The notes below the pieces were generated by a model. It did no database searches and was not told the DNA's origin. It saw only the letters and a list, made by a program, of their open reading frames with translations. From Bacteroidota bacterium (GTDB lineage: Bacteria > Bacteroidota > Bacteroidia > J057 > JADKCL01), in assembly GCA_031415375.1 (NCBI GenBank), contig JANORP010000479.1, positions 485-64,484 of the forward strand: 64,000 bases of DNA, written 5' to 3'. Of the stretch, positions 17,505 to 18,794 are shown piece by piece. A program made the translations under genes and the position numbers. Position 1 is the stretch's first letter, and every line of letters begins with the position of its first letter.

Positions 17505-18794
17505 ATGGATATCCAAGGAAACATTTTGTATGGCGGCCATCGAGCGCAAGCCATCTCTCCCGGGCAGTCGATGTTCTCCAACAACAGAGCCTATCGGCTG
17601 GCTTTTCAGACAGACGGCAATTTGGTCATCTACAAGATCAATCAGCAGACGGGCAAGGAAGACCCGATCTGGGCCACCGGGACAACAGGCAAAAACGTGG
17701 ACGCCGTGCGCATGCAGGCAGACGGTAATTTTGTAATGTACCACCCCCAACAGAAGGGCTCGCCCTGGAGTACCCACACCAACGAAACTGGTGGGGAATA
17801 CATTGTGATGGAAGACTGGGGTGACCTGGTCTTGTACCGTGGCGATGGTGGCATCGTCTGGAGCAGCGCCGAGGATCATCGTGATGACTGGATGAGGCTG
17901 CTGGACGACAGCCTCACGCTCAAGGATATCTGCGTGCCTGGCAGCCATGATGCAGGCATGTACGAGACCAAATACCTCGCTCGTCGCGGCTTAGTGCTCA
18001 CACAATCCCTAGGGCTGTATGACCAGCTCAGATGCGGCGTGCGGTACTTTGACTTGCGGCCCACATACATAGATGGCAAGGGCATCTATGTCTATCATGG
18101 CCCTGCAGAGGGTCCATTGCTACAGGTACTGCTGGATGAGGTGGCGCGTTTCTTTGAATCGCATCCGACCGAGACTGCGATTCTCAATTTCTCGCATTGG
18201 AAACAATTTGAATCCAAAAACGACACTTCCCAGGTCGGCAACCTCACGTTTTGCAAAATGATCCAGGATACATTGGGAAAATACCTGCTCATCAAAGACC
18301 TGAACACCAACCTCTCCAATGTTCCGCTCAAAGAATTGCGCGGCAAGGTCATCCTGATCATCGCGGATCACAATGATCTTTTTGATTTTCACGTGCGTAG
18401 CAAAATCAAGGGCATTTATCAATTAACGATCCAATTGAAACTCTATGACCGTTACTCCGACAAGCGCGACTACGACGAAATGCGCAACGATCAGCAAGGG
18501 AAATTTGATCGCCACGACAACCGCGAGGAGCTCTTCATGCACAATTGGACACTCACGCCGATCGACAATATCATGATCGTCTTCCGATCGACGGTGCGGT
18601 CCTATTCTGAGGAGATCAACCCTAGGCTGCGGCAGGAATTTGGCAAAATGAAGGCCGATCTCTGGAACCCACGCCCCAACGGAAAAATGGTGAACATCAT
18701 CAACATGGACTATGTGCAGGAGGCCTGTCCGCTCGCTGTGTGCAAGTATGTCACGCATCAGCGACTGCTACAGTTGCAGCAGCCTAAGCCATAG
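17505..18794 (+). CDS. bulb-type (monocot mannose-binding) lectin domain fused to a PI-PLC X-type phosphodiesterase
   Basis: 429 aa with no signal peptide. Two intact QxDxNxVxY lectin motifs (QTDGNLVIY, QADGNFVMY) and one degenerate (EDWGDLVLY). PI-PLC catalytic motifs follow: VPGSHDAG, GVRYFDLRP, YVYHGP. Confidence 0.8.
   Translation: MDIQGNILYGGHRAQAISPGQSMFSNNRAYRLAFQTDGNLVIYKINQQTGKEDPIWATGTTGKNVDAVRMQADGNFVMYHPQQKGSPWSTHTNETGGEYIVMEDWGDLVLYRGDGGIVWSSAEDHRDDWMRLLDDSLTLKDICVPGSHDAGMYETKYLARRGLVLTQSLGLYDQLRCGVRYFDLRPTYIDGKGIYVYHGPAEGPLLQVLLDEVARFFESHPTETAILNFSHWKQFESKNDTSQVGNLTFCKMIQDTLGKYLLIKDLNTNLSNVPLKELRGKVILIIADHNDLFDFHVRSKIKGIYQLTIQLKLYDRYSDKRDYDEMRNDQQGKFDRHDNREELFMHNWTLTPIDNIMIVFRSTVRSYSEEINPRLRQEFGKMKADLWNPRPNGKMVNIINMDYVQEACPLAVCKYVTHQRLLQLQQPKP

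Follow-up and report, generated by a model that had tools for sequence, protein, structure and literature searches.

A signal-less B-lectin–PI-PLC fusion protein from a Bacteroidota bacterium and its possible role as a lectin-guided membrane phosphodiesterase

A gene at positions 17505–18794 (forward strand) of a 64-kb stretch of Bacteroidota DNA, referred to below in its entirety as the window, encodes a 429-aa protein that combines an N-terminal B-lectin domain with a C-terminal PI-PLC barrel and carries no signal peptide. Both domains are textbook folds; the database members of their fusion are all annotated as hypothetical. We give roughly even credence to the view that the protein is a lectin-guided factor that cleaves PI or GPI and is aimed at foreign, probably eukaryotic, membranes.

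Domain architecture and catalytic residues

A preliminary description of this DNA had proposed a signal-less open reading frame with exactly these ends, encoding a lectin::PI-PLC fusion, and both parts of that proposal were borne out by the Pfam and PDB matches, the AlphaFold2 model and Foldseek. An in-frame stop is located 11 codons before the start, and since no other start codon intervenes, an N-terminal extension can be ruled out. Pfam PI-PLC-X matched the protein with 28 bits and passed its gathering threshold (23.1), and B_lectin scored 28.2 bits (E 2.9e-6), slightly under its gathering cut-off of 32.4. Searches of the PDB with phmmer recovered pyocin L1 (2.7e-16) and the Mycobacterium smegmatis MMBL lectin (3.3e-15) alongside PI-PLCs from Listeria, Bacillus, and Staphylococcus (1e-14 to 1e-12), and the lectin-PLC family profile matched Listeria PlcA at 1.5e-33 and MMBL lectin at 1e-27. 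The AlphaFold2 model of the protein has a pLDDT of 86.2 and a pTM of 0.88. The two-domain architecture of B-lectin and PI-PLC is well above chance.

The B-lectin (MMBL, beta-prism II) domain, as delimited by Foldseek and phmmer, occupies approximately aa 5–120 (17517–17864, forward strand, as are all features of this gene). In the AlphaFold2 model this half superposes with monocot and fungal GNA-type lectins at TM scores of 0.81–0.85 and rmsd values of 1.8–2.3 Å, and the Foldseek matches to 1xd6 (TM 0.85, rmsd 1.8 Å), 4tkc (TM 0.81), and 1npl (TM 0.76) agree with the beta-prism II fold that had been suggested from motifs. The phmmer matches of the lectin domain include the C-terminal domain of pyocin L1 (2.5e-10) and 4oit (3e-15). 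Two intact QxDxNxVxY sugar-binding motifs and a degenerate one were found as first described: QTDGNLVIY at aa 35–43 (17607–17633), recognized in the sequence, QADGNFVMY at aa 71–79 (17715–17741), recognized in the sequence and the family alignment, and EDWGDLVLY at aa 103–111 (17811–17837), in which Q has become E, D has become W, and N has become D. Residues G38, N39, and L40 of the first motif are conserved in the family alignment (A1), and in the second motif Q71, D73, G74, and V77 are invariant, and Y79 nearly so, among 21 full-length family members; at the third position some relatives keep an intact QNDGNLVLY. Binding of mannose/rhamnose-type sugars is predicted for the two retained sites.

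The remainder of the protein, approximately aa 126–420 (17880–18764), is a bacterial-type PI-PLC TIM-barrel domain according to Foldseek and the family profile. Foldseek matches of this half of the model range from 1e-13 to 1e-11 and include 1aod (1.8e-13), 1ptd, and 3v16, with TM scores normalized to the target of 0.64–0.70 against these three structures. The three PI-PLC motifs named in the preliminary description are all present. Alignment to PI-PLCs in the PDB places H148 and D149 of PGSHDAG (aa 145–151, 17937–17957) at His32 and Asp33 of the Bacillus cereus enzyme; the alignments likewise equate D183 and R185 of RYFDLRP (aa 180–186, 18042–18062) with Asp67 and Arg69, and H198 of VYHGP (aa 196–200, 18090–18104) with the general acid His82. 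H148, R180, and R185 occur in all 141 alignable PLC-family sequences and D183 in 139 of the 141, and the H198 position is occupied by H in 134/139. A further aspartate, D402 in the motif NMDY (aa 400–403, 18702–18713), is invariant in the family alignment and present in each of the 51 sequences alignable there. By its position and conservation D402 is the probable equivalent of B. cereus Asp274, an assignment we assume from the B. cereus sequence and from the place of D402 in the last barrel strand. Judged from these alignments, the barrel possesses a complete acid/base catalytic set and probably cleaves PI or GPI-type inositol phospholipids. Equivalents of B. cereus Lys115 and Arg163 showed no evident conservation when judged by eye, suggesting that head-group specificity could differ from PI.

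Distribution of the family and exchange of targeting modules

The preliminary description had treated the architecture as unfamiliar. Although rare, it is not confined to this protein: some 20 proteins from metagenomes, falling into roughly 8–12 clusters at 50% identity, share it, and a metagenome scan added a single locus (L138). The carrier in the present case is an uncultured member of the Bacteroidota from soil or water, its taxonomy being deduced from FTHFS. The fusion was not found in the searchable literature; a passing mention in a review of MMBL fusions is possible. Every one of the proteins with this architecture lacks a signal peptide and is annotated as hypothetical.

Members of the same PLC clade differ in what is attached to the barrel. 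B-lectin domains are found once or twice and at either end, some relatives having two in tandem, and Ricin-B domains likewise occur at either end; Tectonin/Tachylectin fusions belong to the same clade, which also includes a weak aegerolysin match. Bare PLC relatives of about 300 aa without a signal peptide exist as well, and insertions in the loops at the barrel rim vary among relatives. Elsewhere, this B-lectin also occurs as a fusion partner of chitinases, lysozymes, and proteases. The Ricin-B, Tectonin/Tachylectin, and aegerolysin-like partners show that the pairing of a PLC enzyme with one or another exchangeable targeting module is a genuine pattern. The occurrence of such alternative glycan- or lipid-binding modules also lends comparative support to the idea, first raised in the preliminary description, of a lectin-targeted phospholipase.

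With regard to the origin of the gene, recent horizontal transfer was rejected, as its GC3 of 0.674 falls within the range of most neighbors (0.61–0.77). A lower GC3 of 0.51 was recorded for a PG-binding gene at 20434. PADLOC returned no defence-system match for the lectin-PI-PLC gene.

Divergent two-component system and intergenic region

Upstream of the lectin-PI-PLC gene, on the reverse strand, lie genes for a 234-aa response regulator (15876–16580) with REC and LytTR domains (Pfam Response_reg 3e-19, LytTR 7e-11) and a 662-aa sensor histidine kinase (13888–15876) with matches to HisKA_2 (1.3e-18) and HATPase_c and weak matches to TPR. The kinase is laid out as a signal/TM segment, a TPR-rich sensor region, a TM segment, HisKA_2, and HATPase_c. 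The divergent arrangement is as previously reported, but the intergenic region measures 924 bp (16581–17504) and not 950 bp. Within this region, presumed to hold promoters and operators, are a perfect palindrome (17138–17163) whose arms are 12 nt long, an inverted repeat (17433–17455), and the direct repeats GTAATTTATT/GTAATTTTTT at 17385 and 17408, spaced by 23 bp. All of these are putative elements, and none could be matched with a conserved one. An Rfam scan of 16400–19100 gave no match at E<=1, matches in a scan for sigma-70 promoters and terminators were no more numerous than in shuffled sequence, and no Bacteroidota-type TAnnTTTG -7 box was present on the forward strand upstream of the lectin-PI-PLC gene.

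A divergent, adjacent pair of HisKA_2 kinase and REC(-LytTR) regulator recurs at L002/L003, L011, and L014, such that the arrangement, counting the window, is seen at 4 of the 14 closest loci compared with 0 of about 149 others. Within a Hymenobacter-like group, identity of kinase and regulator is approximately 60%, and an upstream block of 45 bp, GACCTCAAAAAGCGGYGCTTCGTGCTCAATT, is invariant; the gene behind this block encodes a B-lectin-PLC in one locus and a Ricin-B-PLC in the others, with only 34% identity in the PLC domain. The Hymenobacter-group motif TTCGTGYNNAATT is considered absent from the window, where 3 matches compare with 2.7 expected. The kinase and regulator of the window are 29–31% identical to the Hymenobacter-group pair and have the reverse gene order, so that the two-component linkage rests on two lineages. 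A nearby two-component system is absent at most other lectin-PLC loci (L004, L008, L009, and L010). Linkage to a LytTR system, as originally proposed, is upheld by the REC-LytTR regulator found here and by the reappearance of two-component linkage in another lineage, where a non-coding block is conserved as well. This synteny suggests that the divergent two-component system probably controls expression of the lectin-PI-PLC gene.

Export signals and secretion context

The most hydrophobic 12-aa segment near the N-terminus scores 0.19, compared with 2.2–3.0 in proteins of the window that have Sec signals, and a hydrophobic N-terminus is absent from all 21 full-length family members. The lectin-PI-PLC lacks the marks of T9SS export (a Sec signal and a Por_Secre_tail/CHU_C C-terminal domain) and, having neither Sec signal nor C-terminal sorting domain, could be ruled out as T9SS cargo. 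Nine other proteins of the window have a Por_Secre_tail. Two further PI-PLC-X proteins, encoded at 41027–43059, both possess Sec signals, and one has a T9SS tail.

The lectin domain begins at residue 5, leaving no N-terminal marker or packaging region of the T6SS/eCIS kind. Genes for VgrG, Hcp, PAAR, sheath, or baseplate proteins were not found in the window, and 143 neighboring ORFs from 27 loci included no immunity, T6SS, or eCIS families; on this census, the hypotheses of a T6SS/eCIS effector and of an accompanying immunity gene were rejected. With no Sec signal, no T9SS C-terminal domain, and no secretion genes adjoining the lectin-PI-PLC gene, no export route can be named. The cysteines C143 and C413 are never split, C413 being found in all 47 sequences that have C143, a set that is not phylogenetically independent, and their co-occurrence is compatible with an extracytoplasmic disulfide.

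Possible functions

For sugar specificity, lipid substrate, extracellular action, target organism, regulation, and release route, we infer the following. The gene product would be a two-module enzyme, synthesized in the cytoplasm with no Sec signal and under the probable control of the divergent kinase and regulator. After release, the N-terminal lectin would probably dock the protein on a glycan-coated surface, and the PLC barrel would then probably cleave PI or GPI-type inositol phospholipids in the underlying membrane. Since the targeting module is interchangeable on the PLC clade, the lectin would set the site of action and the PLC would carry out the damage or harvesting there.

Inositol lipids are universal in eukaryotes. 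They are rare in bacteria (PMC9246714), and together these distributions favor eukaryotic or PI-bearing targets over close relatives; the likeliest would be eukaryotic cells such as fungi, algae, and protist grazers, or else those few bacteria in which PI occurs. No immunity protein is encoded nearby, and a producer lacking PI would not need one. The role as a toxin is putative, as is the identity of any victim.

A use of these two domains for nutrient scavenging, by which a CBM-like lectin would anchor the PLC to debris of fungi, algae, or plants for harvest and not for killing, appears unlikely. The goods harvested would be inositol phosphate, phosphorus, or diacylglycerol. Enzymes devoted to scavenging in this phylum normally bear a Sec signal with a T9SS tail, or a lipoprotein signal, whereas the lectin-PLC family never does, and transporter, SusC/D, and phosphatase genes are not linked to it. 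In favor of scavenging are the frequency of lectin- or CBM-hydrolase fusions in Bacteroidota, the attachment of the same B-lectin to degradative enzymes such as the chitinases mentioned above, and the presence in this genome of the two additional, exported PI-PLC-X proteins.

A more speculative proposal, which we consider distinctly unlikely, is that the family is the bacterial counterpart of fungal cytoplasmic defence chimerolectins, stored in the cell and active only after lysis. The toxin would be freed when the cell is lysed, for example sacrificially or in the food vacuole of a grazing protist or nematode. The lectin would bind mannose-rich glycoconjugates or GPI glycans of the predator, the target of the PI-PLC would be the vacuolar or plasma membrane, and an external cue acting through the TPR kinase and LytTR regulator would switch the system on. 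Listeria PlcA, the closest solved relative, also acts on a vacuolar membrane. Such a mode of action would account jointly for the missing export signals, the missing immunity genes, the anti-eukaryote modules, and the rarity of the substrate.

Classification as an LlpA/LlpB-type bacteriocin, by which the lectin would recognize LPS sugars of relatives and the PLC would kill these competitors, is very doubtful. The preliminary description had pointed toward LlpA/putidacin-type proteins, and the resemblance is real to the extent that pyocins L1 and L2 match the lectin half best in sequence, through their sugar-binding C-terminal domains, that signal peptide and immunity gene are both lacking, as in most LlpAs (PMC6240691), that the tandem MMBL domains of some relatives are LlpA-like, and that one relative adjoins a lanthipeptide cluster. 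The assignment itself fails, however, because NCBIfam LLB_putidacin (NF033557) yields 58.2 bits against a cut-off of 275 and the C-terminal peptide directed at BamA, by which Llps are defined (bioRxiv 10.64898/2026.09.25.754295), is lacking, its expected place being taken by a 300-aa enzyme. Moreover, a PI-PLC would find no obvious substrate in the LPS that makes up the outer leaflet of Gram-negative relatives, the scarcity of inositol lipids among bacteria argues against such prey, and the Ricin-B, Tectonin, and aegerolysin-like partners are typical of toxins and lectins with eukaryotic targets. Least probable is a cytoplasmic enzyme whose substrates would be endogenous lipids containing inositol or mannose, or endogenous lipid-linked intermediates, a role which would suit the family-wide lack of signal peptides, the bare signal-less PLC relatives, and the synthesis of inositol lipids by some Bacteroidota (PMC9246714), but which sits poorly with modules (lectin, Ricin-B, Tectonin, and aegerolysin-like) characteristic of foreign-surface recognition, with a cysteine pair hinting at an oxidizing environment, and with a rare, patchy distribution and whole-cassette replacement at a conserved locus that better suit an accessory weapon.

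If the preferred function, that of a lectin-guided factor cleaving PI or GPI, is true, environmental Bacteroidota would possess a modular family of membrane phosphodiesterases directed by lectins, and these proteins would provide a simple natural case of reprogramming where an enzyme acts, the module being swapped even at a conserved, regulator-linked locus. The family would also bear on the way in which lectin toxins that have no signal, LlpA among them, get out of their producers, and on the weapons that non-pathogenic Bacteroidota might deploy against eukaryotic grazers, fungi, or algae. Practical angles include reagents for glycan-targeted cleavage of GPI anchors or PI, and leads for antifungal or antiprotozoal agents.

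Comparison with known systems

The gene arrangement resembles AgrCA, ComDE, and BlpRH in that a REC-LytTR regulator adjoins a putative antagonism gene. The analogy with AgrA, ComE, and BlpR drawn in the preliminary description is weak, however, since the kinase is a TPR-sensor HisKA_2 protein and not a polytopic HPK10, and no gene for a small pheromone peptide or for its processing and export (ABC/C39 exporter) was found at 11–24 kb of the window.

The bacterial PI-PLCs (Listeria PlcA and the enzymes of B. cereus, B. thuringiensis, and S. aureus) share with the present protein the TIM barrel, the His/His pair, and its Asp/Arg partners. These known enzymes are single-domain, Gram-positive, and Sec-secreted, whereas the protein described here, at 18–23% identity to them, has an N-terminal lectin, lacks a signal peptide, and comes from an uncultured member of the Bacteroidota.

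B-lectin modules serve as targeting devices in pyocins and in umbrella toxins (PMC6240691, PMC13274773). The Llps (putidacin L1 and pyocins L1 and L2) resemble the lectin-PI-PLC in their B-lectin fold and QxDxNxVxY sites, and provide its best sequence matches; the shared lack of a Sec signal and of an immunity gene extends to most of them (PMC6240691). Llps are nevertheless defined by a C-terminal BamA-targeting peptide (bioRxiv 10.64898/2026.09.25.754295), which blocks BamA, and they have no enzymatic domain, in contrast to the 300-aa PLC found here; they are, furthermore, products of Pseudomonas, Burkholderia, or Xanthomonas and not of Bacteroidota. In the lectins of umbrella toxins (Streptomyces UmbA; PDB 9oee), a diversified B-lectin-like module likewise confers specificity for cell-surface glycopolymers (PMC13274773, PMC11062931). 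Umbrella toxins are secreted multi-protein particles with lectin and toxin on separate chains, unlike the present protein, in which lectin and enzyme are parts of one chain and for which UmbB/UmbC partners are absent.

To our knowledge, no bacterial equivalent of the eukaryotic chimerolectins has been described. The 2025 chimerolectin classification contains no phospholipase C chimerolectin. Chimerolectins and the cytoplasmic defence lectins of fungi (for example, Marasmius oreades lectins and CCTX2) are eukaryotic, unlike the lectin-PI-PLC, but are comparable to it as fusions of a lectin and an effector and in having no signal peptides (PMC12355970, PMC13324453). GNA-type, Ricin-B, and Tectonin folds are common to the fungal defence lectins and the PLC clade, and one of the structural matches to the lectin half, 4tkc, is itself the GNA-type lectin of Marasmius.

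Architecture and Fold of the Lectin-PLC

The open reading frame at 17505–18794 on the forward strand encodes a 429-aa protein, here termed lectin-PLC, in which an N-terminal B-lectin domain is joined to a C-terminal PI-PLC domain. All six motifs listed in the preliminary description were found in it, namely QTDGNLVIY (residues 35–43), QADGNFVMY (71–79) and the degenerate EDWGDLVLY (103–111) in the lectin part, and PGSHDAG (145–151), RYFDLRP (180–186) and VYHGP (196–200) in the PLC part. Pfam scored PI-PLC-X at 28 bits, over its 23.1-bit cut-off, and B_lectin at 28.2 bits, slightly under its cut-off of 32.4. 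Comparison with the sequences of solved structures gave far stronger matches, to pyocins L1 and L2 (3e-16 to 3e-15), the Mycobacterium smegmatis MMBL lectin (PDB 4oit; 3e-15) and the PI-PLCs of Listeria, Staphylococcus and Bacillus (2e-14 to 1e-12), and a family profile matched Listeria PlcA at 1.5e-33 and 4oit at 1e-27. An AlphaFold2 model built from 21 family sequences was confident (pLDDT 86.2, pTM 0.88); in Foldseek its C-terminal 300 residues matched PI-PLC barrels (E 1e-13 to 1e-11) and its N-terminal 120 residues matched GNA-type beta-prism II lectins (TM 0.76–0.85, rmsd 1.8–2.4 Å), the fold predicted earlier from the lectin motifs. The two-domain arrangement first seen in the sequence is confirmed.

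Residue conservation was read from an alignment of 21 full-length relatives (33–44% identical). Invariant or nearly so were PLC residues H148, D149, R180, D183, R185, H198, D315/Y317, N347-W348-T349 and D402, together with Q71, D73, G74, V77 and Y79 of the second lectin site. H148, R180 and R185 were also invariant when the wider PLC family was considered (141 alignable sequences), and HMMER aligned H148/D149, D183/R185 and H198 to the His/Asp, Asp/Arg and His that act in catalysis in solved PI-PLCs. The third lectin site is degenerate in lectin-PLC (Q to E, D to W, N to D), while some relatives keep it intact. The lectin-PLC family also shares two invariant cysteines, C143 and C413, and in the wider PLC family C143 is always paired with C413 (47/47, cases that are not phylogenetically independent). 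Such a pair could form a disulfide, which would agree with a protein working outside the cytoplasm.

Distribution and the Missing Export Signal

A search of 5.8 billion proteins returned about 20 that cover at least 93% of lectin-PLC at 33–40% identity, all of them metagenome or MAG proteins annotated as unnamed or "hypothetical", one from a Flavobacterium MAG. When 1.84 billion representatives were searched exhaustively with a profile, the complete lectin and PLC arrangement turned up in only about 8–12 clusters at 50% identity; the fusion, unfamiliar when first described, is indeed rare but recurrent. In seven relatives (560–627 aa) two tandem lectin domains precede the PLC. No description of the fusion was found in the literature searched, and a 2025 classification of chimerolectins does not mention phospholipase.

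The lack of a signal peptide, also claimed initially, is borne out. An in-frame stop lies 11 codons 5′ of the start with no start codon between, which rules out a longer N-terminus, and none of the 21 full-length family members has a signal peptide. Their N-terminal peak 12-residue hydropathy is at most 1.5, apart from a single value of 2.08 that belongs to a lectin strand, against 2.2–3.0 for Sec-signal proteins of the window. The window encodes many T9SS-tail proteins and an adjacent pair of PI-PLC-X paralogues on the forward strand (41027–42163 and 42190–43059), so that three or more PLC-like enzymes are encoded within 25 kb. Both paralogues are about 23% identical to lectin-PLC, have H-N rather than H-D in the first catalytic motif and carry clear Sec signals, the first with a T9SS Por_Secre_tail as well. 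Since they appear normally exported, the signal-less state of the lectin-PLC family is a genuine feature.

Partner Modules and Genomic Neighbours

When conserved peptides of the family were used to scan species genomes and metagenomes, 162 non-redundant PLC loci were recovered, chiefly from Bacteroidota (Flavobacterium, Hymenobacter, Emticicia, Chitinophaga, Dyadobacter, Pedobacter, Saprospiraceae) and Proteobacteria. The PLC occurs bare (~300 aa), with a signal peptide or as a lipoprotein, with single or double N-terminal B-lectins, with tandem B-lectins at the C-terminus, with Ricin-B at either end, with C-terminal Tectonin/Tachylectin, with an aegerolysin-like N-terminal module (a weak match) and, commonly, with an unclassified N-terminal domain of ~180 aa. 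Identifiable partners are almost all glycan- or lipid-recognition modules, a pattern that points to a PLC module with interchangeable targeting partners. Of the comparative evidence, it lends most weight to the suggestion that the phospholipase is guided by a recognition domain. The initial interpretation taken as a whole stands only in part.

Among 143 ORFs within 3.5 kb of PLC genes at 27 loci, the sole recurrent Pfam families were phage tail-collar (8 ORFs), kinase/regulator pairs (3), collagen-like (3) and T9SS-tail (3); neither hallmarks of T6SS or contractile injection systems nor immunity families occurred in this census. At seven loci, signal-less tail-collar genes (PF07484), frequently as tandem arrays, share the strand of a PLC-family gene and are no more than 3 kb away from it, irrespective of the PLC architecture: L006 (7310–7987), L010 (3175–3852), L013 (9738–10274), L015 (five copies, 2460–5795), L029 (10874–11452), L061 (three copies, 9057–10862) and L089 (4790–5326). 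PTL_trimer/collagen-like genes stand alongside in L001, L006 and L010. The window has no Collar-domain gene. At L008 (1990–8589) a tandem-lectin PLC gene (P0003) is convergent to a class I lanthipeptide cluster with LanB dehydratase, LanC cyclase and C39-ABC exporter.

Lectin-PLC has a GC3 (0.674) in line with neighbouring genes and no operon partner, as the next gene is a convergent moaA. The host is an uncultured Bacteroidota bacterium: besides the T9SS-tail proteins, the window encodes a formate-tetrahydrofolate ligase that shares 92% identity with a protein from a "Bacteroidia bacterium" MAG and about 75% with Fulvivirga proteins. Elsewhere in the window, a signal-less 493-aa protein (20434–21915, forward) has a disordered Ser/Pro-rich N-terminus, PG_binding_1 and an HExxH motif (HEYIH), its PG-binding part showing a weak match to 4nso, a T6SS effector structure from Vibrio cholerae. 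The gene for a 225-aa lipoprotein without Pfam match (21912–22589, forward) overlaps the last 4 nt of that reading frame, an arrangement that resembles an effector-immunity pair. A trypsin-like T9SS protein (29275–30645) lies upstream of five tandem paralogous genes (33338–40473, forward; ~430–450 aa each) with a terminal Por_Secre_tail and no further Pfam match. Amid chromosomal genes, an RNA ligase (46736–47725, forward) carries a PHA02142-type OB-fold domain, which gives it a phage-typical architecture. A 2094-aa ORF (49665–55949, reverse) has no Pfam match at E ≤ 0.001, and GC is raised there (0.58–0.59) with a sharp GC-skew reversal (+0.10) relative to the remaining window. At 57593–61872 (forward), a TIR-domain protein matching PADLOC ThsB-like models (5e-11) and three overlapping genes without family match may form an anti-phage defence cluster.

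Linkage to a Two-Component System

The window encodes a REC+LytTR response regulator (15876–16580) and a kinase (13888–15876) with a signal/TM segment, a TPR-rich sensor region, a second TM, HisKA_2 and HATPase. A pair of the same type adjoins and diverges from the PLC gene at three further loci, that of the metagenomic relative P0006 (L002/L003) and those of the Hymenobacter MAGs L011 and L014. All four are among the 14 loci closest to the window PLC; none of about 149 other loci has a comparable kinase within 4 kb of the PLC gene, and several lectin-PLC loci have no kinase/regulator neighbours. Within the Hymenobacter-like group, identities of 61.5% (kinases) and 60% (regulators) indicate orthology, while the gene downstream encodes a B-lectin-PLC in one case and Ricin-B-PLCs in the others, with PLC halves only 34% identical. 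A conserved regulatory locus hosting different lectin-PLC cassettes argues for a functional link between the two.

A non-coding 45-bp block, GACCTCAAAAAGCGGYGCTTCGTGCTCAATTKYCTTG, is invariant in L002 (about 6528–6572), L011 and L014 (columns 255–297 of upstream alignment A2) amid diverged flanking sequence. It lies ~100 bp 5′ of the start codon, ahead of both B-lectin-PLC and Ricin-B-PLC genes, with a second, degenerate copy close to where the kinase gene begins in L011 and L014, and is a candidate regulator binding site. The window kinase and regulator are only 29–31% identical to those of this group, their gene order is reversed and the upstream motif was not found in the window, so the linkage represents two lineages rather than many. 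Mid-way in the 924-bp intergenic region, at 17138–17163, stands GCCGTGACCTGC-GA-GCAGGTCACGGC, a perfect palindrome whose arms are 12 nt long and which has no T-run.

Possible Function and Comparison with Known Systems

We put at about even the chances that the lectin docks on a surface bearing mannose- or rhamnose-type glycans and the PLC attacks the underlying membrane, cleaving its inositol phospholipids or GPI anchors. Because inositol lipids are universal in eukaryotes and rare in bacteria (PMC9246714), eukaryotic cells or the few PI-bearing bacteria would be the likeliest targets. No immunity gene would be required in a producer that lacks PI, expression would probably be set by the kinase and regulator encoded alongside, and some form of export is presumed.

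A scavenging enzyme with a CBM-like lectin is plausible but on balance unlikely, as it leaves the missing export signals unexplained when paralogues in the same window are exported. By analogy with the cytoplasmic defence chimerolectins of fungi, lectin-PLC might instead be a stored anti-grazer toxin acting after lysis, although we consider this quite unlikely. The likeness to LlpA/putidacin-type bacteriocins in the preliminary description was not supported: the Llp family model reached only 58 bits against 275 in lectin-PLC, and the defining C-terminal peptide is absent, so that a true Llp-type bacteriocin is very unlikely; the release route of LlpA itself is still unknown (PMC6240691). An intracellular role, which would agree with the missing signal peptide, is at odds with the partner modules and most improbable.

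Lectin-PLC is thus a new variation on familiar components and belongs to a small, uncharacterised family whose pattern is modular. The adjoining regulator carries a LytTR domain, as first noted, but the resemblance of the window two-component system to Agr, Com and Blp ends at the LytTR domain.
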